From NCBI RefSeq assembly GCF_057098645.1, contig NZ_CM169472.1: a stretch of DNA of 64,000 nucleotides; one strand, written 5' to 3'. Shown in pieces: positions 21,217-62,739 of the stretch. Within the stretch, counting starts at the first letter, position 1, and every line of letters begins with the position of its first letter. Made by a program: the position numbers and the translations under genes. The notes below the pieces were generated by a model. The model was not told where the DNA came from. It saw nothing but the letters and a program-made list of their open reading frames with translations, and made no database searches.

Positions 21217-21225
21217 TATTCCCAC

Positions 21226-22424: not shown

Positions 22425-22430
22425 CCGCTC

Positions 22431-25783
<3,353 letters not shown>

Positions 25784-34016: not shown

Positions 34017-34059
34017 CACGACACTGCTTATTGCTTTGATTTTATTCTTATCTTTCCCA

Positions 34060-34115
34060 TGGTACCCGGAGCGGGACTTGAACCCGCACAGCGCGAACGC
34101 CGAGGGATTTTAAAT
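34060..34115 (-). other. tRNA-Leu 3-prime fragment (integration remnant)
   Basis: tggtacccggagcgggacttgaacccgcacagcgcgaacgccgagggattttaaat equals the 3-prime part of leuZ; 5-prime part replaced by island sequence. Confidence 0.85.
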
Positions 34116-34462
34116 TCTACGCAATATCAATGAGTTACATAGCAGTGCATTGCGAAACTTTGCTGACGTTGAATGGTCGTCTTTGCAACCACTGGCAGAA
34201 AATGGATAGCCGTAGATTGCGTTGAGCACAGAAACAGCACAGGGTAATCGTCTACTTGGTCCTGTAAAGGAGGTTGTTGCCACACAAGCTAAAGCGCTTG
34301 ACCTGCCCCCAGTATTCGGTACAACTGTCAGTTAGTAATATCTGTTCTGTGAACCGCTCTCTGAATGTGATCCATTCATAATCAGCGCTACCTTTAGAGG
34401 TTGAATACCCAGCCCCTGGTAAACATAACGTTCCAGGGGGTACTTTGCGATGAAGGATATTT

Positions 34463-36334: not shown

Positions 36335-36391
36335 TTTATATCCTTACATAGCTGGATGAACACCATAGATCATACTGATCCCAGATCCAAT

Positions 36392-36901: not shown

Positions 36902-36952
36902 AAAACCCCTTCTTATATAGTTCTGTAATATGTTAATTTAGCTGGGCTCTTA

Positions 36953-40989: not shown

Positions 40990-41058
40990 CCGGTAATCCT
41001 TCTTGGCTAAGAGGTGAAACTGTATGTCCTTACGGACATACTCAAAATGAACGAAGAC

Positions 41059-42843: not shown

Positions 42844-42865
42844 GAGCAAGCCCCCTTCCGCTTTG

Positions 42866-43549
42866 TCAGTGCAGGCAGCACTTTTTAAATTTTTTACCAC
42901 TGCCACACTGACACGGGTCATTACGACCGGGCAGTTTTTCTGCCCCCTTCACGGGAACAGGCCGGGATGATGCCTCTGACATTCTCACCGACAACCAGTG
43001 CTGGTAAAGCGCCAGTGCCGCAGGCTGAATGAGAGTAATACTCTGTTCAAATTGAACAGGTGACATTTTCTCAACCACTGGGAAGTTCTTTTCAATACCA
43101 TGAAGGGCTATCGCCTCCAGCGAGGGACGTAAGGCCTCTGGCAAGGCTGACCAGTCATCCAGAGACCGGCCTTTCATATACCCGAAACACCACTCTTCGA
43201 CGATGGTATATGTCTTCCCCTTCACCTCACGTCCATTGAAAATCGGTTCAAACTGTTCAGGGGCCTCATACAGGCAGCCAGCGATATCGTTCATATGCTG
43301 AAAACACAGCCCCACAAAACGCGTCATCTCTTTTTCAGTGGTCCAGCGAGGGTGGTAATCACCTCGCCCCCAGATAGCACTGAGCCAGGTATTAGGGGAA
43401 ATCGTATTCGGGCCAGAGACAATCGCCGTCAGAAAGCCATCCAGCTCAGAGAAACAGAGCACAGAGTCATCATTGCCGTATTTCATCAACACCTCTTCCA
43501 GCCAGTCGATTTCCCGGTCAATCAGCGGCCCGCTTTTCGTCAGTTTCAT
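42866..43549 (-). CDS. YecA-like UPF0149 protein with SEC-C motif (paralogue of chromosomal yecA)
   Basis: 227-aa ORF colinear with YecA at roughly 60 percent identity by eye, ends [24 protein letters not shown] overlap with hsdS stop; stop 22 nt before next gene. Confidence 0.7.
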   Translation of the reverse strand: MKLTKSGPLIDREIDWLEEVLMKYGNDDSVLCFSELDGFLTAIVSGPNTISPNTWLSAIWGRGDYHPRWTTEKEMTRFVGLCFQHMNDIAGCLYEAPEQFEPIFNGREVKGKTYTIVEEWCFGYMKGRSLDDWSALPEALRPSLEAIALHGIEKNFPVVEKMSPVQFEQSITLIQPAALALYQHWLSVRMSEASSRPVPVKGAEKLPGRNDPCQCGSGKKFKKCCLH

Positions 43550-44188
43550 TCGGCAACCGCCTCATCGACCTTAACACGACGTTTGCCAGTCAGTAGCTGT
43601 TGCATCAGGGCTTTTTTCTCGTCTTTCAGGCAGGCGAGTTTTTTCTCCAGCGTGGAGATTTCAGCGTCGGCAGCGGAAAGGACGGCGGCGATTTTTTGTT
43701 GTTCTTTGATATCTAATGGCAACCTAAAGTCTTTCTCTTTAAGTTCTCGCATATGTCTGCTGTAACCTAAATTCGGAATATCTGTATTTGAAAGAAGATA
43801 GTATCCAAGTTTTGGTTCAAGTATTTTGCTAGTTTTTATTACTTGCGTTCCATCAGCACCGGGACAAAACACAAACTCAATCCATTTGACGCATCTTGTA
43901 TGATCGCCAAAAACAATCACAGGCACGTCCGAATAAACCTCTAAATTATTACAGTACCCAGCAATTCGACTTTGCCCTTGATCGATTATAGGGATGGAAC
44001 CTGACTGTAAATAATCGGAAGATTTGACTTGCGCCGATTTTTTATTTGCAACAATGAAAGCATTATCAAACGTTAAATATACCCACTCCCCATTAAACCT
44101 CCCCCCATTCTCATCCAGCAAGCGTTTTTGTCCGGTAAGCAATTGCTGCATCAGGGCTTTTTTCTGTTGCTGGCTGTTGGTGAGAAGC

Positions 44189-45245
44189 GGCTTTGTTGAA
44201 TAAATCAGATTTCGGGTAAGTCTCCCCCGTAGCGGGTTGTGTTTTCAGGCAATACGCACGCTTTCAGGCATACCTGCTTTCGTCATTTTGTTCAGCGCTC
44301 GTACCAGGGCCATAGCCTCCGCAACCTGACCATCGTAGTCACGCAGCGTCAGTGAACCCCCGAACAGCTGTTTTACCCGGTACATCGCCGTTTCCGCTAT
44401 CGAGCGACGGTTGTAATCTGTTGTCCATTTCCACCGCGCATTACTCCCGGTCATTCGCTGATTAGCCACTGCACGGTTACGGTCTGCATATTCACCGGGC
44501 CAGTAGCCCGCACCTTTTCGGGGAGGGATAAGCGCGCTGATTTTCTTACGCCGCAGTTCATCGTGACATAGCCGGGTATCGTAAGCGCCATCGGCGGCGG
44601 CTGACCTGATTTTCCGGTGGGTTTGCCGGATTAACCCGGGGAAGGCCTCTGAGTCCGTAACGTTGTTCAGCGACAGGTCTGCACAGATGATTTCATGTGT
44701 TTTACTGTCAACGGCGAGATGCAGCTTACGCCAGATACGGCGGCGTTCCTGGCCATGCTTTTTGACTTTCCACTCGCCTTCACCGAAGACCTTCAGCCCG
44801 GTGGAATCAATCACCAGATGTGCGATTTCACCCCGGGTGGGCGTTTTGAAACTGACATTAACCGACTTTGCCCGCCTGCTGACACAGCTGTAATCCGGGC
44901 AGCGTAGCGGAACGTTCATCAGAGAAAAAATGGAATCAATAAAGCCCTGCGCAGCGCGCAGGGTCAGCCTGAATACGCGTTTAATGACCAGCACAGTCGT
45001 GATGGCAAGGTCAGAATAGCGCTGAGGTCTGCCTCGTGAAGAAGGTGTTGCTGACTCATACCAGGCCTGAATAGCTTCATCATCCAGCCAGAAAGTTATG
45101 GAGCCACGGTTGATGAGGGCTTTATTGTAGGTGGGCCAGTTGGTGATTTTGAACTTTTGCTTTGCCACGGAACGGTCTGCGTTGTCGGGAAGATGCGTGA
45201 TCTGATCCTTCAACTCAGCAAAAGTTCGATTTATTCAACAAAGCC
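44189..45245 (-). mobile_element. IS903-like element (IS5 family), copy 1, 1057 bp
   Basis: Terminal inverted repeats GGCTTTGTTGAATAAATC; 9-bp target duplication GTGAGAAGC at 44180-44188 and 45246-45254. Confidence 0.9.
44245..45213 (-). CDS. IS903-like transposase
   Basis: 322-aa ORF; recognised by eye as IS903/IS102-type transposase. Confidence 0.85.
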   Translation of the reverse strand: MKDQITHLPDNADRSVAKQKFKITNWPTYNKALINRGSITFWLDDEAIQAWYESATPSSRGRPQRYSDLAITTVLVIKRVFRLTLRAAQGFIDSIFSLMNVPLRCPDYSCVSRRAKSVNVSFKTPTRGEIAHLVIDSTGLKVFGEGEWKVKKHGQERRRIWRKLHLAVDSKTHEIICADLSLNNVTDSEAFPGLIRQTHRKIRSAAADGAYDTRLCHDELRRKKISALIPPRKGAGYWPGEYADRNRAVANQRMTGSNARWKWTTDYNRRSIAETAMYRVKQLFGGSLTLRDYDGQVAEAMALVRALNKMTKAGMPESVRIA

Positions 45246-45815
45246 GTGAGAAGCTTTTCCGTCACCGAAATCGCCTCATCCCAGGTTGACAGAATTTTAA
45301 CGATTCTCTTTTGTTCAGACAGTGGGGGGATATTAAATGGCCACTTAAACCAACTATCTAACTTAAAAATCATTTTCTCTATGTGCACACCAATGCTAGA
45401 GTGGAAGCAGGTTTGCTGGAAATATAGAGACTCCGATAGAAATTCCATATAAGGAAGATAAAAACCGGACTTCCCTGTAAGCACACAATATTCATTCGAT
45501 ACAATTGAGCCAGAAAGTTCTTTAGGTACAAGACCGCAAGCACCGTGCACAATTTGTCGTTTTGATATGAGAAAGTCGCCTTCTTTAATATAGAATTGAC
45601 TTTTTACGGAGATATCTTTTCCTTTAAGATGCTCACGTCTTATTACGCCACCTCTGGAGCGCTTTACTGTAACTAAGTCATACTCTTGATTATCTTGTAT
45701 ATATGCCTTTCTTGCCTCTATATTTAAGCACTTTTCTAATGATAACTTTTGCCATCCTGTAGGTAGCATTCCAAGGATCGGTTTTCCAGCTTTAACGCTC
45801 ACTGGGTAAAGCGAA

Positions 45816-47339
45816 TCACGAGCCATAACCCAACTCCTTCAAATACCCTGCCATCTCAACTTCCAGCTTCGCCAGTTCCACCTTCAGTTGCTCACGCTCT
45901 GCTCGCACCGCCACCAGGTCAATCTCATCCTCTTCTTCAAAGGTATCGACATAGCGCGGAATATTGAGGTTGTAATCGTTGTCCTGAATTTCCTTCAGGC
46001 TGGCAAGATAGGCGTATTTCTCGACGTTATCGCCATCACGGTAGGTCTTGACGATTTTCTTAATGTTTTCTTCGCTAAGCTGGTTCTGGTTTTTACCTGC
46101 CTTGAATTCACGGCTGGCATCGATAAACAGCACCTTGTCATCAACTTTCTACTTTTTGAAAATCAGAATCGCAGCCGGAATCCCCGTACCGTAGAACAGT
46201 TTTTCCGGCAGACCAATTACCGCATCCAGCAAATTTTCGTCGATCAGTTTCTGGCGAATTTTACCTTCGCTGGAGCCACGGAAAAGCACACCGTGTGGCA
46301 CAACTACGCCCATACGGCCAGTTCCCGGTTTCAGGGTTTCGATCATATGCGAGATAAAAGCGTAATCTCCTTTAGTCTTCGGCGGTACACCGCGACGAAA
46401 ACGGCCAAACTTATCGTTCTCGGCCTCGTCATGGCCCCACTTATCGAGGCTGAACGGTGGGTTAGCGGTCACGATATCAAACAGCATCAGGTCGCCATTT
46501 TTATCGAGCAGCTTCGGGTTACGAATGGTATCGCCCCACTCGATTTTATGGTTGTCTTCCCCGTGCAGGAACATATTCATTTTCGCCAGCGACCACGTAG
46601 AACCGATCGCTTCCTGACCGAACAAGGCATAGTTACGACTATCATGCCCGGAGACAATTTTACGCCCACACTTCATCAATAATGAACCGGAACCACAGGC
46701 TGGATCGCAGATGGTATCACCCGGTTGCGGATCGAGCAGTTCTGCAATCAGGTCCGAAACTTCCGGCGGGGTATAGAACTCCCCGGCTTTCTGCCCACCG
46801 CTGGCGGCAAAGTTTTTGATCAGGTATTCGTAAGCATTGCCGATAACGTCCAGCGTACCGACACGACTCGGCTTCAGGTTGAGATCTTCACCGGCGAAGT
46901 CTTCCAGTAGCTGACGCAGTATGGTGTTTTTCTGTTTTTCTTCGCCAAGACGATCGGTGTTAAACGAAATATCCTGGAACACGCTTTTCCCGGCATCTTT
47001 CAGTTTGGTTCCGTTGGCTTCTTCGATTGCATGCAGAGCCTGATCGATACGCTCACCGTTACCCAGCTCATGGCGGCGTTCGTACAGCGCATAAAAGCTG
47101 GCACTTTTTGGCAGTACAAAACGCTCGTTGGCCATCATCGCTTCAATCAGTTCCGGCGCATCGCCATACTGTTCTTTGTATTCGTCATAGTGATCCTGCC
47201 AGACATCTGAAATGTACTTGAGGAACAGCATGGTAAGGATAAAGTCTTTATAGGTATCAGCACTGATGGTGCCACGGAACGTATCACACGCGGCCCACAG
47301 GGCTTTGTTGATCGTGTCCTGACTGATTTTGTCGTTCAT
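45816..47339 (-). pseudogene. hsdM: type I R-M methyltransferase HsdM with in-frame amber codon at 46149-46151
   Basis: 396-codon ORF with N6-adenine MTase motifs (DPACGSG, NPPF) stops at ...AAILIFKK TAG, then continues in frame KVDDKVLFIDAS... for 105 more codons; overlaps hsdS start. Confidence 0.8.
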
Positions 47340-47714
47340 GAATCATCCTGGTCTGAAGAAAAAGCTAGCGATGCAGGGCTTTGCATCTTAAAAATTGCGG
47401 TAAATGATACCGTAAGATGCCTCCCCTGACACGCCAATATCGCAGCATTCAGGTTTGCATCATCCCCGTAATATCGACATGAGACAGACTGACACAACCT
47501 GGCTCGTCACTCGCTAAAAACCAATTATCTTAGTAAGATAGCATCCATATTAGCCATGGTGTAAAACTGCCGTTGGGGTAATGATGATCCATATATCACC
47601 CATTCTGGTGTGTGAAGCTGACATCATCCATAATCGGCAACGTTGATGCCCTTTGATAGTAATGATGACCGTCAATGTGATTCCCCTGCTGACTGGAGGT
47701 CTCCGGATAGAATG

Positions 47715-48878
47715 AGTATTGCCAACTGCGCTATCGGCCCACTTTATGATGAGCAAATAAAAAAAACACTTATGTATGCTGACCATAAATTCAAGCGGCT
47801 AATGAATACACGAATGTCGTTACTCGAACATTTATCACCCCACTATGACTTATCTTCCATGTTCAGCTATGAGTTGGAGGGAAGAGTTTTTCGGATTAAA
47901 TTGATCAAGCCTGAGATTAAATTATCTCGCCAGCAGTTGATCTTCTCCTCACTCTTTTTAGAGCAAGATTTTCTAAAAGAATATAAAAAACACATCTCAA
48001 ATACTCTACAAAAAACAATCAAACAGTGCATTAAAAAATACAAACAAAAAATCAAAATCGAGCCTTCTATTTTAGATTACATATCAGCATCACCCCGCAA
48101 TACGTCGAGTTATGTATTACATGAGATAGTTTCTCAATGTGAACATTGCGATGAAATTCGCAATATTAAAAATGATATATTGCTTGATGAACTAACGTTG
48201 AATGGCCGGATCACTAACATTTCAAAATACATTAAAAATAGTCAAGATAAAATCGTCGAACATATAGAGTTCTGCACTCATAAACTTGTCAATATAAGTC
48301 GTAAGAATCGTCACATTTTCAACAGCACCACAATACCTGGTAGAAAACCTAACATCACTGGTGTTTTACTTTGCCTTTCGGAATTGATAAGCAACCTGCA
48401 TATTTACCCAACTGAAATTAATAATATAAGCAATGCCATAATATTAAGCATTGTATACTCTGTACTTCAACATCTTCAATCTGGAAGAGAAACAGAAAAA
48501 ACCAAAACCTCTCCAGCACTGAATTTCATCCCCACCATCATCGCACCTCATGTTTTCTACCTGGCGAAACGCGAAAAATCCTCTCAATATAAATACATTG
48601 AAAAAGAATATCTTCTCGGCCAGTTACTTATATTTTTGATGTATAAAACAGTTTACTACTCGATTCATAGCATCAGGGTAAGCCGTAAGCATTTCTATAA
48701 CGATATAAAACCAAAATTAATGACACTAAAAAAAGAAAGCTTATTAAGCACCAATTTCATGAAAAATCGAAGAGAGATTAGTGGTGAAGTCTTTGGTGAT
48801 GTTGGTAGTATTGAGGCTGATTTTCGAGAAATCAGCACATTGATTCATCGGCGAAAGGCTCTGTTTATTTCCTTTTAA
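47715..48878 (+). CDS. hypothetical protein, AT-rich, Lys/Ile/Asn-rich
   Basis: Long ORF in strongly AT-rich DNA; start chosen at MSIANCAIG; no recognisable motifs. Confidence 0.4.
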   Translation, partial: SIANCAIGPLYDEQIKKTLMYADHKFKRLMNTRMSLLEHLSPHYDLSSMFSYELEGRVFRIKLIKPEIKLSRQQLIFSSLFLEQDFLKEYKKHISNTLQKTIKQCIKKYKQKIKIEPSILDYISASPRNTSSYVLHEIVSQCEHCDEIRNIKNDILLDELTLNGRITNISKYIKNSQDKIVEHIEFCTHKLVNISRKNRHIFNSTTIPGRKPNITGVLLCLSELISNLHIYPTEINNISNAIILSIVYSVLQHLQSGRETEKTKTSPALNFIPTIIAPHVFYLAKREKSSQYKYIEKEYLLGQLLIFLMYKTVYYSIHSIRVSRKHFYNDIKPKLMTLKKESLLSTNFMKNRREISGEVFGDVGSIEADFREISTLIHRRKALFISF

Positions 48879-49279
48879 TCTTTAGAGAACACTATATCAT
48901 CGTGAAGCAGAGCTAATTTCAGCCTTGCATAGATCATTATCAATGCCATAGACAGTGTTAATCATATGACATCGTTCCGGTATTGATACTGATTATCAGG
49001 CCTTGGTTTTATGTAATTTAAACACCACCATCTCTGAAACCCCATAACGCTCACAATTTAACCATAAAAACTAACCGGTTTATACCCGCTAACAAAATCA
49101 ATAACATATTGAATTTAAATAACTATAACCATTCCAACTACAGATGACTGGCTTTTATTTATGGTATATGTCCCGGCAGAATCAAGCTTGCGCCCTCTAC
49201 CACTCACGATTTAGGATTTCCTCGCTAACACAGCATGTTTCATTATAAATCAATGTATTAATTTAAACGAGGATAAACC

Positions 49280-50126
49280 ATGTTCGAGAAAATGAAAAAC
49301 AATGTAACCCGTGTACCGGGGAATTTAACCATACTTAATCAATACCAAAAAGACATTGATCACCTGTCTAAATTATTTTCTGAACAGCTATTACTGGATC
49401 TAATGACGACTACCAACCCTAATCAAACATTGCAAATGAAACCTTCTGTAGATATTCTTCATGTACTATCTCCATCAGCATCCACTGCTAACCATATCAA
49501 TTTTTTTCAGCACGTCCCAGTGATCGAACTATGGTTAAAAAAGGAGTGCACTGCCTTTAATTCACTTGCTATTTATTTCTATGCACAGCAATCCCGTAAA
49601 AATGTCATTCCGAAAAAAAATCTGTAGACAACTGGACGTATTTATTAATACTGAACTTGCATCTGCGGTTAATGGCAATAGTAATTCTAAACCCCTTTTT
49701 CATTTTCTAAATAACTACCTTTATCATCCTAAAATGATTGCATTGATCATTTTATCTATGCTGCCTTATGAAGTCATTCGTAACGATGAATCACTGAGTG
49801 AGTTTAAAACACCATTAACCACACCCGATGAGTTTATTATCAAAGCATTTTGCGTTAAAGGTACGCAAAACACCACGGGACATAAAAAAGATATCGAACA
49901 ATTGCTTCGAAAAACATATATCTACATTGCATTACTTTTGAACCCTGAGTGGGTACCATCATCCAAGGATTTGATTTCCTTTTTATCAGGAGAGTCCACC
50001 GAGATAAGTGGTTCAATGAATTTCCAGTCAACGTCCAGTGGTCTGGGTGTTCAAACTAACAATATCACTCTTCTTAAGAATGAGGTTTACTTCGAAAAAA
50101 TAGCGAACAAGATCATGAAACTGTAG
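49280..50126 (+). pseudogene. hypothetical gene split by a frameshift in an A8 tract (49614-49621)
   Basis: ORFs 49280-49627 and 49566-50126 overlap in different frames; with A7 instead of A8 the frame reads through (...IPKKICRQLDVF...). Confidence 0.45.
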
Positions 50127-50271
50127 TTTCTTAATATAATGGCGACATGGAATTGTGTTGCCATTATATCCGAATCAGAATTTTTCACCTGATGAACTGT
50201 GAAAACTGAGACTGGCAGACAGTAATCTCGCACCGTATTTTTTCTGTGTTATTTTACAGGAGAAATACGAT

Positions 50272-51400
50272 GCCCATTCTGGATCTGCGTTTCAGCAACA
50301 AATCACTTCACCAACTTCCCCATCCCCTCACGGGCTGTCAGGAATACCGTGATATTCACTGCCAAAACCTGCGTGCTCTGGTGTATCCCAATCGGATCAC
50401 GCTGGCCTTTCGTGCCACTATAAACAATCAGCGTATATATGAACCCCTGGGTCAGTTCCCTCAGCTCTGCGTTGAGGATGCCCGTCAGCATGTGATGAAA
50501 CTGCTTGCTGATAAAAATCGTCTTGCGGTTCAGTCCCGTCGATTCACTGTGGAACAGGCCATCAATGACCTGTGGCTACCGGATTTGCAGTTGTATAAAA
50601 AGAGTCCTCAGTCAGAGTTGTCAAAACTCAACCTCTACGTTCGCCCGTTCTGGGGCAAGCGGCAACTTCGCGACATCACGGCAGGAGAACTAGAACAATA
50701 TGCTGCTGGCTTACGGGAAAAATTACGTCCGTCAACAGTAAACCGTATCCTCGCAATATTGTCCAAAATATGCTCTCTGGCAGTACGTGCTGGATGGATC
50801 ACGCATTCCCCGATGTCACATGTCCGCTATCTGAAAGAAAATAACATTCGCTATCGCACACTATCAGCGACAGAAATCCCGCGCTTTATTGACGCGGCAA
50901 CAGCGCTGCAAACACCGGCAGCTGATTCTATATTGCTTGCTCTTTATACGGGGATGCGTATTGGTGAGGTATGTACCCTGAAATGGGAGTACTGGCACCT
51001 GGATATGCATCAACTCATACTGCCTGATACAAAGTCCGGACACCCTTTCACCTGCCCACTTGCACCTCCAGCCATTGCAGTTGTCCAGTGCCAGCAGGAC
51101 CTGATGCTCAGCAAAACTTACATTTTTCCGCGACTAACCGACAATGCCCGCCCTCTGGCATATCCGCGTGCAACCTTTGCCCGTATTTGCCGGGATGCCG
51201 ACATTGATAACCTGCGGATGCATGACCTGCGCCGTACCTTTGCCACCCGGGTACTACAGGCGACCGGGGATATTGCAATCGCTTCCCATCTGCTAAATCA
51301 CCATTCACTCACGGCGACCCGTCGCTACGCTTTTCACAATGCAGCGACATCACACGCAGTGGTTTCTCAGGTCATTGAAAGTTATGACACGAAAAAATGA
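50272..51400 (+). CDS. tyrosine-type site-specific integrase
   Basis: RBS AGGAG then ATG; catalytic signature R (YTGMRIGE), HDLRRT, HH, RYAFH with Tyr. Confidence 0.75.
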
Positions 51401-51440
51401 ACCAATGATCTGTGATTCGTGAAAGCAGTTCGCAGAAAGA

Positions 51441-51608
51441 TTGAATCTTTCTGCATCCACGGTTGCGTCAGATATTTCTCGCAATCCCGGAAAACTCCCG
51501 CCCTTCATCAGAATTGGGCGGGCTATACGATTCTCTCTTGACGATATTGTTGATTGGGAAAATGCACATCGTCAAAACAAACTTAAAGGTGATATAAATG
51601 GTTACTAA
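51441..51608 (+). CDS. AlpA-like excisionase / HTH regulator (short ORF, no ATG; possibly TTG-initiated or a remnant)
   Basis: Translation LNLSASTVASDISRNPGKLPPFIRIGRAIRFSLDDIVDWENAH resembles AlpA-type HTH; frame opens right after a TGA. Confidence 0.4.
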   Translation: MNLSASTVASDISRNPGKLPPFIRIGRAIRFSLDDIVDWENAHRQNKLKGDINGY

Positions 51609-51786
51609 GAACACGGAAAATAACGCTAATAATGCACTGAACATTCTTCCCGAATCAGCAAGCACAGCTGTAGACAACGATGAAAAATATCTGTCCTTTG
51701 CATTAGTTCTCGCTATCACGATTATGGGCAACTGAACCGCCCCGGGAATCCTGGAGACTAAACTTCCTGAGAAAGAGGTAAACAGG

Positions 51787-52113
51787 ATGACTAAAAATAC
51801 TCGTTTTTCCCCTGAAGTCCGTCAACGGGCAGTCCGTATGGTTCTGGAAAGTCAGGGCGAATATGACTCACAATGGGCGACAATTTGTTCCATTGCTCCA
51901 AAGATTGGCTGTACGCCGGAGACTCTGCGTGTCTGGGTTCGCCAGCATGAGCGGGATACCGGGGGCGGTGATGGAGGGCTCACCACCGCTGAACGTCAGC
52001 GTCTGAAAGAGCTGGAGCGTGAAAATCGTGAACTGCGCCGCAGTAACGATATCCTTCGCCAGGCTTCCGCTTATTTTGCGAAGGCGGAGTTCGACCGCCT
52101 CTGGAAAAAATGA
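51787..52113 (+). CDS. IS629 OrfA (transposase N-terminal HTH part)
   Basis: 108-aa [22 protein letters not shown]... Confidence 0.85.
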
Positions 52114-53000
52114 TGCCACTGCTGGATAAGCTGCGTGAGCAGTACGGGGTCGGACCGCTATGCAGCGAACTGCATATTGCCCCGTCAACGTATTACCACT
52201 GTCAGCAACAGCGACATCATCCGGATAAACGCAGTGCCCGTGCGCAGCGCGATGACTGGCTGAAGAAAGAGATACAGCGCGTATACGATGAAAATCACAA
52301 GGTATACGGTGTGCGTAAAGTCTGGCGTCAGTTGTTACGGGAAGGTATCAGAGTGGCCAGATGCACTGTGGCACGTCTCATGGCGGTTATGGGACTTGCC
52401 GGTGTTCTCCGGGGTAAAAAGGTCCGTACGACCATCAGCCGGAAAGCCGTTGCCGCAGGCGACCGCGTAAACCGTCAGTTCGTGGCAGAACGACCTGACC
52501 AGCTGTGGGTGGCTGATTTTACTTACGTCAGCACATGGCAGGGCTTCGTCTATGTGGCGTTCATCATTGATGTGTTTGCCGGATACATTGTGGGGTGGCG
52601 GGTCTCATCGTCCATGGAGACGACATTCGTGCTGGATGCACTGGAGCAGGCGTTATGGGCCCGTCGACCGTCCGGCACGGTCCATCACAGTGATAAAGGT
52701 TCTCAGTATGTATCGCTGGCCTACACACAGCGGCTTAAGGAAGCCGGATTACTGGCATCAACAGGAAGTACAGGCGACTCGTATGACAACGCGATGGCGG
52801 AGAGCATCAATGGTCTTTACAAAGCGGAGGTAATACACCGTAAGAGCTGGAAAAACCGTGCAGAAGTGGAACTGGCCACACTCACGTGGGTGGACTGGTA
52901 TAACAATCGACGATTGCTGGAAAGGCTGGGCCATACTCCTCCGGCAGAAGCAGAAAAAGCTTATTATGCTTCCATCGGAAACGATGATCTGGCAGCCTGA
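52110..53000 (+). CDS. IS629 OrfB (transposase catalytic part, DDE)
   Basis: 296-aa ORF overlapping orfA. Confidence 0.85.
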
Positions 53001-53662
53001 GTTCACAGATAAAACACTCTCCAGGAAACCCGGGGCGGTTCAAACTTAGTAAAGCTCATCGGCACAGATGGCTTCATACTTTATACCTACACCCTGCAGG
53101 ACACGGCTACTGCTCGTGCTGTTTTTAATGAATTAGCCAGGCGTCTCAAAAATTTCAATCGTCAGGAGGAGGTCTACACCACCGATTCCCTCACCTTTCG
53201 AATGAAATACATTTACGGTGTTACCCTGTTCGAACATGATAGTAAATCTATCCTTAACCTTTTTGATAAGAAGGGTTATCCAGTATTGAGTGAATCAGGA
53301 GAACCCGGTTCTCTTGATGATATGTATCTTGACATTCAAGCCCGATTACATGGCGGCTACGCCTCAAAAAAGTTTCTTCATTTACATGAACATTGTCTGT
53401 TATCTGCACACGTTACCCCGTCTGTGGAAAAGACGCAACGTGGTATCCTGATTAAAGCAGGCAGGAAACTCGTTTCCTTTATCTATGCAGATAATGAATC
53501 TCGCAAAAATGATATTTTCAAAGCTGTAGTAGACGTCATTAAATCCTGATTCATTATGCCGGGTGCGTATTCCGCTCTATTCGATCACGGATTGGCATCG
53601 AAGTCCGATCAGCGATTCGCATCCATTCGATCAACCGGGAACTTAACTTTTTCTACCGCTTT

Positions 53663-54421
53663 TTAACGCGTTTTTTCGCTGCTTTCCACTACCGGGGGAT
53701 TTTTCCTCAGTGACTCTCCCTGAAGGACCACTCGGTGTGAGTTATGTACCAGTCTGTCCAGGATGGCATCTGCTGTTGTTGGGTTCTCCATCAGACCATG
53801 CCATTTATCTACCGGGAACTGGCTTACCACTATCGTGCTGCTTTGTCCGTAACGATCCTCTATGAGCTCCAGAAGGTCATTACACTGGGCGTTACTTAAC
53901 TGTTCCAGCCCCAGATCGTCCAGGATTAGAACCTGTATTTTTTGCAACTGTTTCAGATATTTCAGCCAGCTGCCATCAACACGTCCCTGAGCCAGTTGTT
54001 CCAGTAATCGCCCGGTTCTACAGTACCGGACGCTGTGTTTCTGTCGACATGCCTGTTCGCCCAGCGCATTGGCTATCCAGCTCTTGCCACATCCTGTCGG
54101 ACCGGTTATCAGCAGGTTTTTCCTGTGGGTTATGTAGTGGCCGTTCAGCAGTTCTCTCATCTGTTCAGCCCGCAGACCTCTTGAGGCCGGATAGCGCAGC
54201 CCTTCCGGTGTTGCCTGGTATTTCAGGCCGGCATTTTTTCTCAACCGTGCCACACGGCTGTTTTCCCTGCTCAGAAGCTCGTCATCAACCAGCAGCGTCA
54301 GCCTTTCCTCGAACGACAGTTCGTCGTAGGTCTGAGGCGTTTCCCGCTGCCGTATCAGGCTCCCGGCCATCGCCGGGAGTTTCAGTTGGGTCAGTTTGTT
54401 TAACAGGTTATCACTCATACT
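53663..54421 (-). CDS. istB: IS21-family IstB ATP-binding helper protein
   Basis: Start at MSDNLLNKL; Walker A GPTGCGKS. Confidence 0.75.
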   Translation of the reverse strand, partial: SMSDNLLNKLTQLKLPAMAGSLIRQRETPQTYDELSFEERLTLLVDDELLSRENSRVARLRKNAGLKYQATPEGLRYPASRGLRAEQMRELLNGHYITHRKNLLITGPTGCGKSWIANALGEQACRQKHSVRYCRTGRLLEQLAQGRVDGSWLKYLKQLQKIQVLILDDLGLEQLSNAQCNDLLELIEDRYGQSSTIVVSQFPVDKWHGLMENPTTADAILDRLVHNSHRVVLQGESLRKNPPVVESSEKTR

Positions 54422-54434
54422 GTTGTTCCTTCTG

Positions 54435-55970
54435 TCAGTGGTAGTAGCCCGGACCACGCAGGTTTTCATGCTCTGAAGCATATGCCGGATGTTGTTCGCC
54501 CTGGCGGGATAATGGAAGCTCCAGGTTCTCCCGATGGTGACGCAGCAGATTGTCGATAAAGCGTCTGTCAGGGGCGTTATAGTGCAGGGCAACGTAACAG
54601 GCCTTTTCCAGCCGTTCCGGGCCGTATTTTTTCTGAAGTGCCAGCAGCCCCAGAACTGCACGATAAGCCAGTTCCGGATGGGGTTTTGCCTTCAGCATGG
54701 ATTCAACCACCCGGCCTGTGGACGGGCCCGTACGTTTTCCCTGCTCGATCAGGCGTTCCGGTGTCCATGTCCCGTGCTGCCGGTGGCGCTCTGGCATGTG
54801 AAGCGGATTGGTTGTGTGTTTATATTCATGTGTGCTGCGCGGATGTTGCGCCACACACTGCCCCTTGTGCCAGAGCTGTACCACCGACTGCCCCGCCTTC
54901 AGTGACAGACGCTGACCGACCAGTTCGTGTGGAACGGAGTACCAGTGACGGGCATATTCAACGTGGTAGTCAGGGCCAACCTTCACAGCTTTGTATTCCG
55001 TGTATTCATAAGGTGCCAGAGGCAGCGGAGAGAGTGCTGGCGCATCCAGTATGCGGAAGCGTTCTGCACGGGTTTGATTGCCGTACCCCTTCATTGGCCG
55101 GTTATTCATGTCTGTCAGTAACTCCCTAAGGCGCGCATTCAGCGCCCTGAGCGTGTGGAAGGTTTCATTACGGATGCGGGCAAGAAGCCATCGTTCAACG
55201 ATGAGGACGCCGTTTTCTGCTTTTGGTTTATCTTTAGGTTTGCGTGGTCGGGCCGGGATGATAACCGTGCCATAGTGCTCAGCCAGTGCCTGATAACTGT
55301 CGTTGATGACAGGCTCATATCGATCGGCCTTTTTCACTGCGCTTCTGAGGTTATCGGGGATGAGCAGCTTCGGTACGCCGCCCAGGAAGGTCAGGCAACG
55401 GCTGTGGGCATTTAACCATGACATCATGTCCTGACCTTCGCACGCTTCAACGTAGGTATAGTTGGACGCCCCCATTACGGCCACGAAGATTGCCACGCGG
55501 CGTATCTCACCGGTGTCCGGATTAATAACAGGAACCGTAGGACCACAGAAGTCGATAAAAAGCTTTTCGCCGGCACGATGCTCCTGGCGCATGGAGAGAC
55601 GTCGCGTTTTTTTCCACTCCCGGTAGCAACGGCAGAAGTGCGAGTATCCCATCGCTTTGTTACCCGCCTGTGCCTTGTATTCCATCCACAACAGTTGCCG
55701 CGTCACACCTGGTTTTCTCATTTCCGTATCGAAGTACAACATGTCAGGCATTACAAGCTCTGATGCAAAGGTGTCTTTGGGCGGAAAAATGAGTTTCTCC
55801 AGCGTGTCATGGGATATATCAGCAGGTAATGGCCATGACAGAGAAGAGGCTTTGAAGCGGGCAAGAACCTCAAAAACGGTTGAGGCGCTGATGTGTAACG
55901 TCAGTCCGATACAACGGTTAGTCAGCTTCTTGTCGAACTTGAGCTGAAGGATCTTAAAACAGGTTTCCAT
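54435..55970 (-). CDS. istA: IS21-family transposase IstA
   Basis: Start chosen at METCFKIL; DDE integrase-type fold; precedes istB. Confidence 0.7.
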   Translation of the reverse strand: METCFKILQLKFDKKLTNRCIGLTLHISASTVFEVLARFKASSLSWPLPADISHDTLEKLIFPPKDTFASELVMPDMLYFDTEMRKPGVTRQLLWMEYKAQAGNKAMGYSHFCRCYREWKKTRRLSMRQEHRAGEKLFIDFCGPTVPVINPDTGEIRRVAIFVAVMGASNYTYVEACEGQDMMSWLNAHSRCLTFLGGVPKLLIPDNLRSAVKKADRYEPVINDSYQALAEHYGTVIIPARPRKPKDKPKAENGVLIVERWLLARIRNETFHTLRALNARLRELLTDMNNRPMKGYGNQTRAERFRILDAPALSPLPLAPYEYTEYKAVKVGPDYHVEYARHWYSVPHELVGQRLSLKAGQSVVQLWHKGQCVAQHPRSTHEYKHTTNPLHMPERHRQHGTWTPERLIEQGKRTGPSTGRVVESMLKAKPHPELAYRAVLGLLALQKKYGPERLEKACYVALHYNAPDRRFIDNLLRHHRENLELPLSRQGEQHPAYASEHENLRGPGYYH

Positions 55971-56594
55971 AGTGCTCCTGGATTTTCTCTTTCTGGACAT
56001 TGACGTCTCCACTGGTTTAAACACGGCAATGGAGACTGTGGTGAAAAGAGTTAATTCCCGGAGTGACTGGCAGGATGCCAATCAATGATCGGAAGCATGC
56101 CAAATCGTGATCGATTGTGATGCCAAACTGTGATCGGAGATGGATGCCAAATCATGATCGATTCGAATGCCAAACTGCGATCGATTCAGATGCCATTTTG
56201 CAGCCGGGGGGGACGAACTCCCGGCATTTTTTCGGAGTTAACTATGAGCAATAATTTGCAGGACATCCTCGCTGCCGCATCGGGGTATCAGTCCGTGACT
56301 TCAGAGCCAGCGCTCAATCTTAAAAGACCTAAAACGCTTGATGATTATCCTGTGATACCACCTGCATCAAAAAAAGTATCTGTTATTTCAAGTGACCTGA
56401 CACTCCATATCGGTTTTGATACCGAATATGTTTTCAATCCTGAAACACAACAGAATGATATTCTGTCATATCAGAGTTATGTTGTCTTACCCGATAATAC
56501 AGGTATATCGAACATTATCTATCCACCTGACTCACAGAAAAAATCCCGGCTGTCTTTTAAGAACTTTCTCTGTCAAACGATTATGGATTTGCCC

Positions 56595-57500
56595 CTATAT
56601 TTCCAGACATCTGTTATCACTTAACCCATTACAAGCCCGCTGCCGCAGATATTCCCGTGGCGAGCGATAACCCAGCGCACTATGCGGATGCCATTCGTTA
56701 TAATGCTCGAACGCCTCTGCAAGGTTCTTTGCTGCCGTTAACCCGTCTGGTTTGGGCATGATACTGATGTAGTCACGCTTTATCGTTTTCACGAAGCTCT
56801 CTGCTATTCCGTTACTCTCCGGACTCCGCACCGCCGTGTTCTTCGGTTCAAGTCCCAACATCCGGGCGAACTGGCGTGTTTCATTAGCCCGGTAGCATGA
56901 ACCATTATCCGTCAGCCACTCCACTGGAGACGACGGAAGATCGTTGCCGAAGCGGCGTTCCACCGCTCCCAGCATGACGTCCTGTACTGTTTCACTGTTG
57001 AAGCCGCCGGTAGTCACCGCCCAGTGCAGTGCCTCACGATCACAGCAGTCCAGCGCGAACGTGACACGCAGTCTCTCTCCGTTATCACAGCAGAACTCGA
57101 ACCCGTCAGAGCACCATCGCTGATTGCTTTCTTTCACGGCCACTCTGCCTGTATGTGCCCGTTTCGATGGCGGTACAGCAGGTTTTCGCTCAAGCAACAG
57201 CGCATTCTGGCGCATGATCCGGTAAACACGTTTGGCATTGATCGCAGGCATACCATCAAGTTCTGCCTGTCTGCGAAGCAGCGCCCATACCCGACGATAA
57301 CCATACGTGGGCAGCTCTCCGATAACATGGTGTATACGGAGAAGCACATCCGTATCATCAGTGTGACGACTGCGGCGGCCATCCATCCAGTCATCGGTTC
57401 GTCTGAGAATGACGTGCAACTGCGCACGCGACACCCGGAGACAACGGCTGACTAAGCTTACTCCCCATCCCCGGGCAATAAGGGCGCGTGCGCTATCCAC
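56595..57500 (-). CDS. insD: IS2 transposase InsD
   Basis: 301-aa ORF. Confidence 0.85.
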
Positions 57501-57823
57501 TTTTTTGCCCGTCCATATTCAACGGCTTCTTTGAGGAGTTCATTTTCCATCGTTTTCTTGCCGAGCAGGCGCTGGAGTTCTTTAATCTGCTTCATGGCGG
57601 CAGCAAGTTCAGAGGCAGGAACAACCTGTTCTCCGGCGGCCACAGCAGTAAGACTTCCTTCCTGGTATTGCTTACGCCAGAGAAATAACTGGCTGGCTGC
57701 TACACCATGTTGCCGGGCAACGAGGGAGACCGTCATCCCCGGTTCAAAGCTCTGCTGAACAATTGCGATCTTTTCCTGTGTGGTACGCCGTCTGCGTTTC
57801 TCCGGCCCTAAGACATCAATCAT
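57458..57823 (-). CDS. insC: IS2 InsC
   Basis: Start at [13 protein letters not shown], 121 aa. Confidence 0.85.
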
Positions 57824-59974
57824 CTGTTCTCCAATGACTAGTCTAAAAACTAGTATTAAGACTATCACTTATTTAAGTGATACTGGTTGTCTGGAGATTC
57901 AGGGGGCCAGTCTAGATTACACCGCTTCTTGAAACGGGTGTGATTACAAAATGGCCCGGTATTATTAATATATATGCGCATTTCATTCGTGCGGATATCA
58001 CCTCCTTTGCCAATTTCTGGTCAGACTACAAAATTCTTCTGAAAGGAATACGCGGTACTGTCAGCAGCTTCAAAAATCGTTACGGTATCGATTTTGATGA
58101 ACAGCAGGAACGTCGCGTAAAGACTGAACAGATAATGTTTGACAAACGAACTTCCCCTCCGCGTTGCAGTAACGTAGCTTTCATCGATACACTGCTTATC
58201 ACTCCCGGGGGTATGGGTCTGGCTGAATGTGGTGAATTACTGGGTCTTCCCAAACTGACCATTCCTGCACCTTATTCCATAACCAATATGCGTGAATATC
58301 TTCTGGGCGACAGAGCAGGGTTTGAAGCCTATGCTCTGCGGGATGCCGAGATTGCGGTTCGTTATGCTTTACAGGTTCGCAATTTTTGCGCCCGGGAGCT
58401 GATGATTGATCGTGTCCCCGCCACCATCGGGGCGATGGCAGTTTCACGGTTCACCAAAACACTTAAAGAAAACAATATGTCTCCTGAAGTCTGCCTTGGG
58501 ACACACATTAAAACCCGTGAACTCTGGCTCACGGAGAAACAGGCATTCCGGACGATTAAAAACCCCGCCAGTGTTCCTTCAAGAGAGCTGTTTGAAACGT
58601 TCCCGATCAACTGTTACCACGGCGGACGCAATGAGTGTTTTATGATGGGGGTTACACCGTCTGATCACTGGTATGACTACGATCTGGCTGGAGCGTATAC
58701 CACCGGGCTATTAGATATCCTCATACCCGATTACGGAAACATCCGCCTCAGTAAAAATCCGGACGATTACTGTGGGCATGTAATGGGATTTGCGTTTGTC
58801 ACATTTCAGTTCCCGGAATCAGTTCCCTATCCCAGCCTGCCGGTTCGGACCGATCAATATGGGTTATTCTTTCCATTAAGTGGCGAATCATGGGCAACGG
58901 CACCTGAAATCGAACTTGCTCTGTCGCTCGGGGCAGAGATGACGATCCATAATGGGATCATCGTCCCCTGGATCTGTGACACCTCCCCACATAACAGCGA
59001 ATCAACATCGGTGTTTCTTCCCTTTGTTCAACAGGTCCGTGAGAACCGTAATCGCCATATTAAAGGTTCTCTGGAGGAGAAATTCTGGAAAGAAATTGGC
59101 AACTCGCTTTATGGCAAACTTGCTCAGGGCCTTCGCGCCAAAACCGCCTTTGATACTGCCCGTGGATTAAACAGATCCCTCCCACCATCATCGGTTACTC
59201 AGCCATTCTTTGCTGCGCATGTGACGGGATTTATCCGCGCCGTTGTCGGGGAACTCATGAATGCTTTGCCTTCTGATTCATCGGTTGTCAGCGTCACAAC
59301 CGATGGCTTTTTGACAAATTGCCCACTTAACAAGATAAACATGAGCGGTCCACTGTCTTCCCGCTTCCAGTCGCTGTGCGATATTGTTGATCCGGGTTCA
59401 TCAATGTTGACATGTAAGCATGAGGTCAGCCAGCTTATCGCCATGAAAACCCGGGGGCAGTTAACCTATAGAGCTATTCAGGGAAAACCTGTTGTTCATG
59501 CCAGGGCTGGCGTCAAACCTCCTGCCGATATTCCACGCAGTGACTATAACGACTATATGGTAGATCTTTACCTTAATCGTTTACCCGGTCAGACGTTATC
59601 CCGAAGTACGTTGATATCAACGCGTGAGATGTGGCTGTCGGAAAGCGATCTGGTATCCCGGGAACAGGATATCCGTCTTAATCTGGAATTCGATTTCAAA
59701 CGCCAGCCCGTACAGCCCGCCATGAATGAAGGGCATTTACTGATGTCTTCCCGCCCATGGGATAATATGGAAGAGGCTCTGCAGCAACGCTCTCTTTTCG
59801 ACGACTGGCGGCAAACGCATACACTGAAGACCCTGGCTGACTGGGATGACTGGTGTGATTTTCTCTATTGCCGGACGGTGTTTTCTGATATGAAACTAAA
59901 AGTCGGAAGCAAACGTAGTGATGATATTTTAGTCAGACTATTTCTCCGGGCGCTGACTCAGTGCCAATGGGGGC

Positions 59975-60523
59975 TTATGCTGAAAGATAAAAAAAGTTAT
60001 TCCTGTAAAGAGGTTGCTGAATGGCTGACGTCAGAAGGCTATTCAGTAACATGTCAAAAAGCACCTGCTGGATCTCCCGGGCCCGAAGGTCGCAGTAACG
60101 TATCTTCCCCAGACGAGGTTCAATGTATTGCGTGAAACGCTGAACATCCTTATCCCAGGACTTTTTATGGCGTTTGATGAACGGAACATAGGTCTGGTGA
60201 AAAAACTCACTAAGTGTTGGCATCGCACGATAATTATCGCGTTCTGCTTTAGGGTCATTTCCCAGTGCAATCGCCTCCTTGTGACGACGAGCTATCTGAC
60301 GGGCTGTCCCCACATCGATTTCAGGGAATCTGCCAATACTGATACTTTTTTTGGTACCGTGGAATGTGTAGCGCAGGAGGAAACGTTTGTTACCCGTTCG
60401 ACCTGAGAGACATTTGAGGCCTATGACCTCGGTATCTGATACCTCAAGCTCTGTAGATCGGGTATCTGTGTTTGCCGGAAGGGCTTTGATGGATGAATTG
60501 GTGAATCGGAAGGATTTTTGCAT
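59975..60523 (-). pseudogene. N-terminal fragment of a P4-type tyrosine integrase (arm-binding domain), truncated
   Basis: MQKSFRFTNSSIKALP ... GRFPEIDVGTARQIARRHKEAIALGNDP resembles integrase N-terminal domain; no catalytic domain follows; overlaps piPolB 3-prime end on the opposite strand. Confidence 0.5.
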
Positions 60524-60709
60524 ATTTATCCTCATGTATCTGATTGATATCATGAAAATAATATATATCTGAAGGTGTTTTTATTACGGGGCAGGATTGA
60601 AGAATGGAAAAGCTATTAGACGCGTACAAACGGATATTGCAGGAAGTTAACGCCCAGTCATTTAACCTGAATGAGGATAAATACTCAGGCGTCTTTTTAC
60701 CCGTGCCGT

Positions 60710-61766
60710 GGCTTTGTTGAATAAATCGAACTTTTGCTGAGTTGAAGGATCAGATCACGCATCTTCCCGACAACGCAGACCGTTCCGTGGCAAAGCAAAA
60801 GTTCAAAATCACCAACTGGCCCACCTACAATAAAGCCCTCATCAACCGTGGCTCCATAACTTTCTGGCTGGATGATGAAGCTATTCAGGCCTGGTATGAG
60901 TCAGCAACACCTTCTTCACGAGGCAGACCTCAGCGCTATTCTGACCTTGCCATCACGACTGTGCTGGTCATTAAACGCGTATTCAGGCTGACCCTGCGCG
61001 CTGCGCAGGGCTTTATTGATTCCATTTTTTCTCTGATGAACGTTCCGCTACGCTGCCCGGATTACAGCTGTGTCAGCAGGCGGGCAAAGTCGGTTAATGT
61101 CAGTTTCAAAACGCCCACCCGGGGTGAAATCGCACATCTGGTGATTGATTCCACCGGGCTGAAGGTCTTCGGTGAAGGCGAGTGGAAAGTCAAAAAGCAT
61201 GGCCAGGAACGCCGCCGTATCTGGCGTAAGCTGCATCTCGCCGTTGACAGTAAAACACATGAAATCATCTGTGCAGACCTGTCGCTGAACAACGTTACGG
61301 ACTCAGAGGCCTTCCCCGGGTTAATCCGGCAAACCCACCGGAAAATCAGGTCAGCCGCCGCCGATGGCGCTTACGATACCCGGCTATGTCACGATGAACT
61401 GCGGCGTAAGAAAATCAGCGCGCTTATCCCTCCCCGAAAAGGTGCGGGCTACTGGCCCGGTGAATATGCAGACCGTAACCGTGCAGTGGCTAATCAGCGA
61501 ATGACCGGGAGTAATGCGCGGTGGAAATGGACAACAGATTACAACCGTCGCTCGATAGCGGAAACGGCGATGTACCGGGTAAAACAGCTGTTCGGGGGTT
61601 CACTGACGCTGCGTGACTACGATGGTCAGGTTGCGGAGGCTATGGCCCTGGTACGAGCGCTGAACAAAATGACGAAAGCAGGTATGCCTGAAAGCGTGCG
61701 TATTGCCTGAAAACACAACCCGCTACGGGGGAGACTTACCCGAAATCTGATTTATTCAACAAAGCC
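60710..61766 (+). mobile_element. IS903-like element, copy 2, 1057 bp, inverted relative to copy 1
   Basis: Same inverted repeats; 9-bp target duplication CCGTGCCGT at 60701-60709 and 61767-61775. Confidence 0.9.
60742..61710 (+). CDS. IS903-like transposase
   Basis: 322-aa ORF identical in translation to the copy at 44245-45213. Confidence 0.85.
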   Translation: MKDQITHLPDNADRSVAKQKFKITNWPTYNKALINRGSITFWLDDEAIQAWYESATPSSRGRPQRYSDLAITTVLVIKRVFRLTLRAAQGFIDSIFSLMNVPLRCPDYSCVSRRAKSVNVSFKTPTRGEIAHLVIDSTGLKVFGEGEWKVKKHGQERRRIWRKLHLAVDSKTHEIICADLSLNNVTDSEAFPGLIRQTHRKIRSAAADGAYDTRLCHDELRRKKISALIPPRKGAGYWPGEYADRNRAVANQRMTGSNARWKWTTDYNRRSIAETAMYRVKQLFGGSLTLRDYDGQVAEAMALVRALNKMTKAGMPESVRIA

Positions 61767-62578
61767 CCGTGCCGTTTGAAGAATACTGGCATTCACCGAT
61801 AAAAATCATGCTGGTTGGACGTGAAACCGCAGGCTGGAATACGCTGAATGGTAAGAATACGATATCACGGGTGTTGGGACTTATACCTGACGTCACCATC
61901 GGGCAAGTGGTTGAAGAAGCTGTAGATCGTTACAGGAAACATCTTCCGGTACAAAATTATGGCACCGCCAACCTCAAATCACGTAGCCGCTTCACGCAAT
62001 ATCATTTCAGGCTGGCCCGGGAGCTTAATATTCTTCCCCAGGCAATCGTGTATGCCAATCTACTGGCGTGGGATTACGACGGACTGACCCCTCTCAATCG
62101 CCCTCAAAATGAAGTGCAGGAAGTCATATTAGCCTCGCTGAAGCTACTGGCGGTACAAATTAAACACCTTGAGCCTGATTTCATCATCTTTGCATCTGGA
62201 GCCCGGAGAACAGACTACATCATAAAACAGGTGCTTACTGAGCTAGGCGGCTATGAGACTTCTTCAGTCATTCCGGGGAAGCTGTGGGAGTTCAAAACAG
62301 GTAATACAATCTGTTTCAGAATTGCCCATCCAAGGGCTATGCGCGGACACCAGAAGTACAGAGATGAGGTGATTGCACGAATTAAGCAACTTTGTACTCA
62401 GGGTGGCTAGAGCATTACAGCTTGCTCAGCAGGGCCCCTTCCCGGAAGAGTACCGGAAAACAGGCAAAGCAACCTGGTTCTCTATGCTGGAGGCGACACG
62501 TTCGATTCGGCATTGCCAGGCTGGAGATTGCAGCTCATTGCACCCCGTGAGCACAGGATATGCACAGGACATGAATTT

Positions 62579-62708
62579 CAGGCACAAAAAAACCACCCGG
62601 AGGTGGTTTCACGACACTGCTTATTGCTTTGATTTTATTCTTATCTTTCCCATGGTACCCGGAGCGGGACTTGAACCCGCACAGCGCGAACGCCGAGGGA
62701 TTTTAAAT
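62579..62708. repeat. attR: 130-bp direct repeat (leuZ 3-prime part plus downstream flank)
   Basis: Matches 33986-34115 with 1 mismatch. Confidence 0.9.
62584..62609 (-). terminator. rho-independent terminator downstream of leuZ (copy within attR)
   Basis: aaaaaaaccaccc gga ggtggttt. Confidence 0.6.
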
Positions 62709-62739
62709 CCCTTGTGTCTACCGATTCCACCATCCGGGC
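62653..62739 (-). tRNA. leuZ: tRNA-Leu
   Basis: 87-nt sequence, reverse complement GCCCGGATGGTGGAATCGGTAGACACAAGGGATTTAAAATCCC...GGGTACCA. Confidence 0.9.

Follow-up and report, generated by a model that had tools for sequence, protein, structure and literature searches.

The window analysed here, a stretch of 64,000 nt from contig NZ_CM169472.1 (NCBI RefSeq assembly GCF_057098645.1), carries a 28.7-kb island that encodes one complete integrase far inside the element and the N-terminal part of a second one. We consider it very likely (probability about 0.9) that this island is an ordinary pipolin inserted at leuZ, whose core had the standard two integrases, lost a segment of 5.8 kb and was later eroded by insertion sequences (ISs). 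The position of the complete integrase is the standard one in enterobacterial pipolins, and the fragment is what the ~5.8-kb deletion spared of the att-proximal integrase that such pipolins normally carry. A first-pass annotation of the same DNA had proposed, from these two genes, that the island is a composite of at least two ancestral modules. What it described was accurate: the complete tyrosine recombinase (hereafter YR1), which it placed about 16 kb from attL and 11 kb from attR, is separated from the end of attL by 16,155 bp and from the start of attR by 11,176 bp; the N-terminal-only integrase (YR2) is antisense at the 3' end of the polymerase gene piPolB, overlaps the piPolB open reading frame (ORF) and has Arm-DNA-bind_3 only; and the two positions it gave, 50272 and 60523, are the starts of the two integrase genes within 2 nt. 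The features that carry the argument are the following:

33983-34115, no strand: attL, left-hand copy of a 133-nt repeat that duplicates the 3' part of tRNA-Leu and the terminator region downstream; it adjoins the chromosomal yecA
50270-51400, plus strand: YR1, complete tyrosine recombinase of 376 aa, recognised by its Pfam matches and intact catalytic residues
56245-56583, plus strand: 5' piece of piPolB, about codons 1-113, the gene annotated by RefSeq as 'DNA polymerase' in E. coli 1217KP and E2528-C1
57915-60135, plus strand: 3' piece of piPolB, about codons 113-823 up to the junction at 60050, with the ORF running to a stop at 60135 (from the alignment to E2528-C1)
60050, no strand: junction of the 5.8-kb deletion (positions 14562 and 20372 of the E2528-C1 locus), with 1-bp microhomology and no IS scar
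60523 down to 60050, minus strand: YR2 fragment with Arm-DNA-bind_3, the first 158 codons of the 399-aa integrase that lies near attR in intact pipolins
62576-62708, no strand: attR, the right-hand copy of this repeat, sharing 56 nt with the 3' end of tRNA-Leu(taa)
62653-62739, minus strand: tRNA-Leu(taa) (leuZ), followed by tRNA-Cys, tRNA-Gly and an ORF that is the pgsA of sister genomes

Identity and insertion site of the island

The island is bounded by a direct repeat whose two copies, attL and attR, agree at 131/133 positions, and it is inserted at the 3' end of leuZ, between yecA and pgsA, with yecA (33199-33864, minus strand) and tyrP as its left flank; the part from 50272 to 60523 belongs to the right-hand 'core' of the pipolin. 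Two features place it among the pipolins: the att-like direct repeats, one of which covers the 3' end of a tRNA gene, and the presence of piPolB, whose pieces in the window show 98-99% DNA identity to the annotated DNA polymerase genes of E. coli 1217KP (NZ_CM173879; L001) and E2528-C1 (L003). The profile matches of the window piPolB were weak (PF03175 and a PHROG DNA polymerase), and a metagenomic homologue was 48% identical over 818 aa. The WYL and DUF2787 genes, which belong to the gammaproteobacterial core near the att-proximal integrase (PMC11551731), are missing from the window and present in the intact relatives, namely E2528-C1 and the Salmonella loci L012 and L019; since both genes fall inside the 5.8-kb deletion, their absence is a loss within the pipolin family and no ground for exclusion. 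When 5,426 complete E. coli genomes, the collection to which all the counts below refer, were searched at the DNA level, the window proved to be part of an O145:H28-type chromosome, with flanks ~0.04% divergent from RM13516, RM9872 and C325. Further loci used for comparison were those of E. coli PapRG-06-5 (L002), LZYWN_4 (NZ_CP046416; L004) and G1/2 (NZ_CP060083; L017), a third Salmonella locus (L013) and a contig from a compost metagenome (L008). Reference pipolins of E. coli are reportedly those of Redrejo-Rodriguez 2017 and Flament-Simon 2020.

The complete integrase occupies its standard position

In the intact pipolin of E2528-C1, the left part consists of hsdR-S-M, two hypothetical genes, YR1 (378 aa), an HTH_17/excisionase-like gene (66 aa), the hypothetical gene hyp212 and piPolB (866 aa), and the right part of hyp108, WYL/HTH, DUF726, DUF2787, two hypothetical genes, YR2, hyp246 and attR/tRNA-Leu; YR2 is encoded there on the minus strand as a protein of 399 aa with Arm-DNA-bind_3 and Phage_integrase domains. 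The Salmonella pipolin has the same order, with two hypothetical genes, an integrase (68% identical to YR1), HTH_17, a 220-aa gene and piPolB, then, farther on, DUF2787 and, beyond it, a second integrase directly beside attR. The block formed by YR1, the excisionase-like gene, one further gene and piPolB is also kept in the compost metagenome contig, where YR1 and piPolB are 40% and 48% identical, respectively, and the mid-element position of YR1 is the same in PapRG-06-5, E2528-C1, all three Salmonella loci and this contig. The comparison of gene order with intact pipolins, proposed as a check on the composite reading, speaks against it: reference pipolins show the same integrase placement as their standard, in intact E. 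coli and Salmonella elements and in the relative with 40% identity, and the mid-element integrase is not a sign of a composite. YR1 looks 'mid-element' because it lies at the boundary between core and cargo, with cargo accumulated toward attL; on the other side, four simple IS insertions make up 6.3 kb of the 11.2-kb distance from YR1 to attR.

This layout has already been published. Gammaproteobacterial pipolins usually have two tyrosine recombinases, IntSXT near the integration site and IntP2, together with an excisionase, near piPolB, and enterobacterial pipolins have been described as 'bimodular', with the core near the tRNA/integration site and an exchangeable cargo distal to it (Mateo-Caceres & Redrejo-Rodriguez, Nucleic Acids Research 2024; PMC11551731). 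The subfamily labels IntP2 for YR1 and IntSXT for YR2 are used as given in that paper. The window resembles the Enterobacterales 'IntSXT + IntP2-excisionase' pipolins in the tRNA-Leu site between yecA and pgsA, in the ~130-nt att repeats, in the integrase and Xis-like gene that precede piPolB, in the second integrase beside attR and in the defence cargo on the attL side (type I restriction-modification (RM) and GmrSD). It differs from them in having neither WYL nor DUF2787 nor the catalytic part of the integrase near attR, and in carrying five ISs and two small deletions.

The ORF of YR1 spans 50246-51400, and the start at 50270 is the one used by RefSeq for its orthologues. The protein matches Phage_integrase (PF00589, E=5e-22) and Phage_int_M, and its alignment to the XerA structure 5hxy revealed a complete R..K..HxxR..H..Y set in the motifs TGMRIGE, TKSG, HDLRR, NHHS and RRY, so that all the residues which define the catalytic domain of a tyrosine recombinase (R, K, HxxR, H/W and the Tyr nucleophile) are present. 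At the nucleotide level YR1 is 99.9% identical to its counterpart in PapRG-06-5. It is the only core gene found intact in the window, as its neighbours illustrate:

47643-50126, plus strand: two conserved hypothetical genes, which precede YR1 in all the pipolins examined (comparison with relatives)
51423-51608, plus strand: remnant of the Xis-like HTH_17 gene (profile match and comparison with PapRG-06-5)
51598-51733 and 53043-53549, plus strand: conserved hypothetical gene of 212 aa, in two pieces split by an IS3-family insertion

The second of the two hypothetical genes (49280-50126) is split into two ORFs and has a 285-bp deletion at 49711 relative to PapRG-06-5, and a 143-bp deletion at 51422/51423 took the region upstream of the Xis-like gene and its first 5 codons, with an in-frame stop preceding the rest. 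In other members of the lineage YR1 itself is damaged: it was split, truncated or deleted in 4 of the 8 inspected (PS10-3, RM9872, CUVM53 and C325), which is consistent with relaxed selection.

A deletion of 5.8 kb truncated the att-proximal integrase

The ORF that contains the YR2 fragment (59975-60553, minus strand) matched Arm-DNA-bind_3 as its sole domain (E=8e-15); beyond 60050 it reads into antisense piPolB, and it shares 85 nt with the end of the piPolB ORF. The integrase has been reduced to its arm-binding domain plus roughly half of the core-binding domain. In the full-length orthologue PF00589 spans residues 213-377, whereas the fragment stops at residue 158; the catalytic domain is thus missing and the fragment is a pseudogene; in sister genomes RefSeq labels it 'Arm DNA-binding domain-containing protein; missing C-terminus'. 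The domain matches of both YR1 and the fragment reflect strong homology and not chance.

By alignment to E2528-C1 the deletion junction was mapped to the base: codon 823 of piPolB is joined to the antisense of codon 158 of YR2. The segment removed comprised the 3' end of piPolB, the 108-aa gene, WYL/HTH, DUF726, DUF2787, two hypothetical genes and codons 159-399 of YR2. Past 60050 the piPolB ORF reads 28 foreign codons from the YR2 antisense strand before its stop at 60135, and the last 43 aa of the polymerase are missing; in the 48%-identical homologue these 43 aa align to the C-terminus. The fragment, which had been taken as a relic of a second module, is the part of the ordinary att-proximal integrase that escaped this deletion. 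A probe of 100 bp spanning the junction was found at 100% identity in 32 of the 5,426 genomes; for the 5' part of YR2 (codons 1-287), an 861-nt probe had matches covering 80% or more of it in 406.

Could an IS have caused the deletion? The element carries five ISs; in 1217KP a copy of ISKpn26 lies exactly between the piPolB stop and a YR2 remnant of 287 codons, and LZYWN_4 and CUVM53 show losses flanked by IS903/ISEc35, so that adjacent deletion by an IS is an obvious candidate. However, no IS end is found at 60050, where only 1 bp of microhomology is present, lineage members without ISs (PapRG-06-5, G1/2 and PS10-3) have the very same junction, and each of the five ISs of the window inserted simply, leaving its flanks intact; we therefore regard an IS-mediated truncation of YR2 as unlikely.

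The truncated variant, too, is known: both the two-integrase layout and the truncated CC32/H28 sub-lineage are already in the literature (PMC7385651, PMC11551731). In strains of phylogroup D, clonal complex 32 (CC32) and H28, an Arm-domain-only recombinase and a partially truncated piPolB were reported, with cophylogeny between pipolins and hosts (PMC7385651), and a monophyletic subgroup was described in which deletions between IntSXT and piPolB left truncated recombinases, with ISs near IntP2 (PMC11551731). This sub-lineage, which corresponds to the 'pipolin 2' group (PMC11551731, Fig. 3B) and includes LREC247, LREC250 and LREC251 (PMC7385651), shares with the window a deletion between piPolB and the integrase near the att site, of which only the Arm DNA-binding domain persists, the truncated piPolB, the ISs near the IntP2-type integrase and the O145:H28-type hosts, and one carrier of the junction, FWSEC0002, is in the published data set. 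There is no essential difference between the two; the IS2 insertion in piPolB of the window is without counterpart in the complete genomes searched, and the window has no adjacent co-integrated prophage. What we add to the published variant is the exact breakpoint (codons 823/158, 1-bp microhomology) and its count in complete genomes (32/5,426).

The course of events in this lineage began with one illegitimate deletion of ~5.8 kb, which fused codon 823 of piPolB to codon 158 of YR2 in antisense. Later, in the strain of the window, five simple transpositions followed (two of IS903-like elements and one each of an IS3-family element, an IS21-family element and IS2) and, after them, the two small deletions of 285 and 143 bp. 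The observation is real but ordinary, and has little significance beyond a correct annotation; it offers a worked example of an integrative island locked in place by deletion of its att-proximal integrase and then eroded by ISs.

Mobility of the truncated island

In intact elements YR2 would probably act as the att-site integrase at leuZ, in line with the published guess that the att-proximal 'IntSXT' is the primary integrase, whilst YR1 with Xis may assist in excision or resolution or provide another route to them. The island of the window is most likely immobile, fixed in the chromosome and decaying, because YR1 is without its Xis partner, the polymerase is dead and the catalytic part of YR2 is absent. 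It may survive as a passenger defence island with intact GmrSD and hsdR.

Several points weigh against this account. The role of YR2 as the att-site integrase in intact elements is only probable, and we infer it rather than derive it from experiment; likewise, immobility is deduced from gene damage, and YR1, which is undamaged, might in principle be functional. Moreover, in carriers of the same junction outside the O145 clone the flanks are 0.6-1.3% divergent and the pipolin core somewhat less, 0.2-0.85%; SNP (single-nucleotide polymorphism) density does not change abruptly at the att sites, and the comparison of flank with element is disturbed by patchy recombination in the cargo and distinguishes only poorly between vertical descent and transfer after the deletion. 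As to the subfamily labels, the nearest phage integrases (tblastn against phages) are at most 29% identical, and the Pfam and NCBIfam matches of both proteins are to generic integrases only.

The divergence values of the same-junction hosts hint at a different history, in which YR1, with Xis where this is intact, might alone excise the truncated pipolin and re-integrate it at leuZ via the tandem GCACAG sites described below, and the deletion variant would have spread horizontally after the loss of YR2. We give this rather poor odds; if true, it would reverse the published guess on the primary integrase.

Fusion of two elements as an alternative

The composite reading, in its explicit form, holds that two or more integrative elements, each with an integrase, fused or accreted, the mid-element YR1 marking an old boundary and the fragment being a relic. 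Part of it stands: YR1 and YR2 are of different lineages, only 27% identical over their full length, and the element is divided into core and cargo. Tandem accretion does happen at tRNA-Leu, and G1/2 is a real case of it at the leuZ hotspot. This strain has three att copies (4548-4680, 26143-26264 and 38304-38350) and carries a truncated pipolin in tandem with a second island, which encodes an MZA anti-phage system and has its own integrase, a frameshifted pseudogene, beside the internal att. Like this array and the pipolin-myovirus prophage combination with three att (PMC7385651), the window has the tRNA-Leu hotspot and the att sequence; unlike them, it has two att copies only and no internal third one with an integrase alongside. 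Internal att-like sequences, whose search had been suggested, were looked for in the window and not found, the best internal matches being of 12 nt or less (E of 0.38 or more), so that no att separates two integrase-bearing units as it does in G1/2.

The other evidence goes the same way. The fragment is explained base for base by the deletion relative to intact pipolins, and neither it nor the placement of YR1 can serve as evidence for a composite. The order of YR1, xis, hypothetical gene and piPolB is kept down to 40% and 48% identity, and that of the two integrases in Salmonella; any merger would therefore predate the enterobacterial pipolins and not be peculiar to the element of the window. 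One published speculation is that, in deep time, pipolins may have acquired the piPolB-adjacent 'IntP2'-type integrase from a different mobile element (PMC11551731). A fusion in the history of this particular island thus appears very improbable to us, and the case is a caution that a mid-island integrase need not mean element fusion. That the fragment is a partial duplicate of YR1, by internal duplication or gene conversion, was rejected outright: the two share domain order and their N-termini align, but YR1 and YR2 are only 27% identical, and the fragment has 90-96% DNA identity to the 5' part of the full-length YR2 of other E. coli.

Insertion sequences and other damage

The pipolin of the window equals its IS-free twin in PapRG-06-5 plus five IS insertions and the two small deletions. 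The overlaps with PapRG-06-5 at the five insertions, of target-site-duplication size in each case, are given in order:

44189-45245, minus strand: IS5-family element (IS903B-like) in hsdS; 9-bp overlap, consistent with a target-site duplication
51734-53042, plus strand: IS3-family element of ~1.31 kb in the 212-aa gene; 4-bp overlap
53564-56202, minus strand: IS21-family element (istA/istB), intergenic, ~40 bp upstream of the piPolB start; 6-bp overlap
56584-57914, minus strand: IS2 of 1,331 bp, interrupting piPolB; 5-bp overlap
60710-61765: IS5-family element (IS903B-like) in the 246-aa gene of the right end; 10-bp overlap
60604-60709 and 61766-62410, plus strand: conserved 246-aa gene between YR2 and attR (20926-21666 in E2528-C1), split after ~35 codons by the IS903B-like element

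As a whole, the Xis-like gene, the 212-aa gene, piPolB, YR2, the 246-aa gene, hsdS and hsdM are broken in the window. The junction of piPolB with IS2 (56584) was covered over at least 80% in none of the 5,426 genomes. An inversion between the two inverted IS903-like copies was considered and rejected, as the interval is collinear with PapRG-06-5. Each O145:H28-type genome inspected has its own set of IS insertions and deletions in the pipolin; the island thus seems to act as a hotspot for ISs and to be diversifying fast inside a single clone.

For the 246-aa gene, no sequence match was obtained in Pfam, NCBIfam or PDB; its only match is to a PHROG of unknown function. The pipolin papers place a family-4 uracil-DNA glycosylase (UDG) where it lies, between the att-proximal integrase and attR; without a match in those three databases this identity was not confirmed, and we left the gene as a conserved hypothetical one. 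It is absent from the Salmonella pipolin, whose integrase abuts attR.

The defence cargo

34463-47339, minus strand: cargo defence module, collinear with PapRG-06-5

The module contains GmrSD/DUF262, a hypothetical gene, a YgjP/M48 peptidase, hsdR, a cold-shock-domain protein, a YecA-like protein, hsdS and hsdM. GmrSD (34463-36334) and hsdR (37705-40989) are full length; the type I RM system (43546-47339) is inactivated, with hsdS split by the IS903-like element and hsdM broken into two ORFs (45816-46133 and 46149-47339). The YecA-family protein (UPF0149 + SEC-C, 227 aa; 42866-43549, minus strand) is encoded inside the type I RM operon, and the chromosomal yecA beside the island encodes a 221-aa protein with the same pair of domains. 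When compared with PapRG-06-5, SNP density rises to 2-6% at 38001-40000 (hsdR) and at 46001-49000 (hsdM to hyp410), against 0-0.7% in the neighbouring DNA of the element; these stretches look like patches of recombinational exchange in the cargo and at the edge of the core.

Other routes of decay in relatives

The locus of 1217KP reached a similar state independently of the deletion in the window: at 22242-24284 its ISKpn26 separates an intact piPolB stop from the 287-codon YR2 remnant, and the genes from WYL to DUF2787 are gone. Its left cargo is also different, with Hhe and two DUF262 proteins. LZYWN_4 carries, at 10618-21963, an island at the same att sites without piPolB, which keeps the full-length att-proximal integrase, hyp246, DUF2787 and DUF726, and in which a shortened WYL gene abuts IS903B/ISEc35; its appearance suggests that ISs mediated the loss of the half of a pipolin that holds the polymerase. 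In CUVM53 and C325, YR1 has been lost as well.

Candidate arm-type sites beside the att repeats

Two short blocks next to the att repeats could be bound by a recombinase:

34214-34243, plus strand: candidate arm-type site inward of attL, AGATTGC..GA[GCACAG]AAACA[GCACAG]GG
62525-62575, plus strand: candidate arm-type site abutting attR, AGATTGC...GTGA[GCACAG]GATAT[GCACAG]GACATGAA

Both inner arms have a common architecture, AGATTGC followed by a spacer and two direct copies of GCACAG exactly 11 bp apart, and the right-hand GCACAG block ends 8 bp from attR; GCACAG also occurs once in the tRNA part of att, and its background frequency is 0.59 per kb with both strands counted. Judging from this arrangement, the tandem GCACAG blocks are plausible arm-type binding sites for a recombinase; such an architecture is not mentioned in the pipolin papers cited (PMC11551731, PMC7385651). 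The left candidate is conserved in G1/2 and partly in LZYWN_4 and in Salmonella L012 and L013. The right one is kept beside attR in E2528-C1 (~21785-21832) and in Salmonella L019 (att at 9342-9471), and in Salmonella the right-hand GCACAG block is conserved despite unrelated DNA upstream of it.

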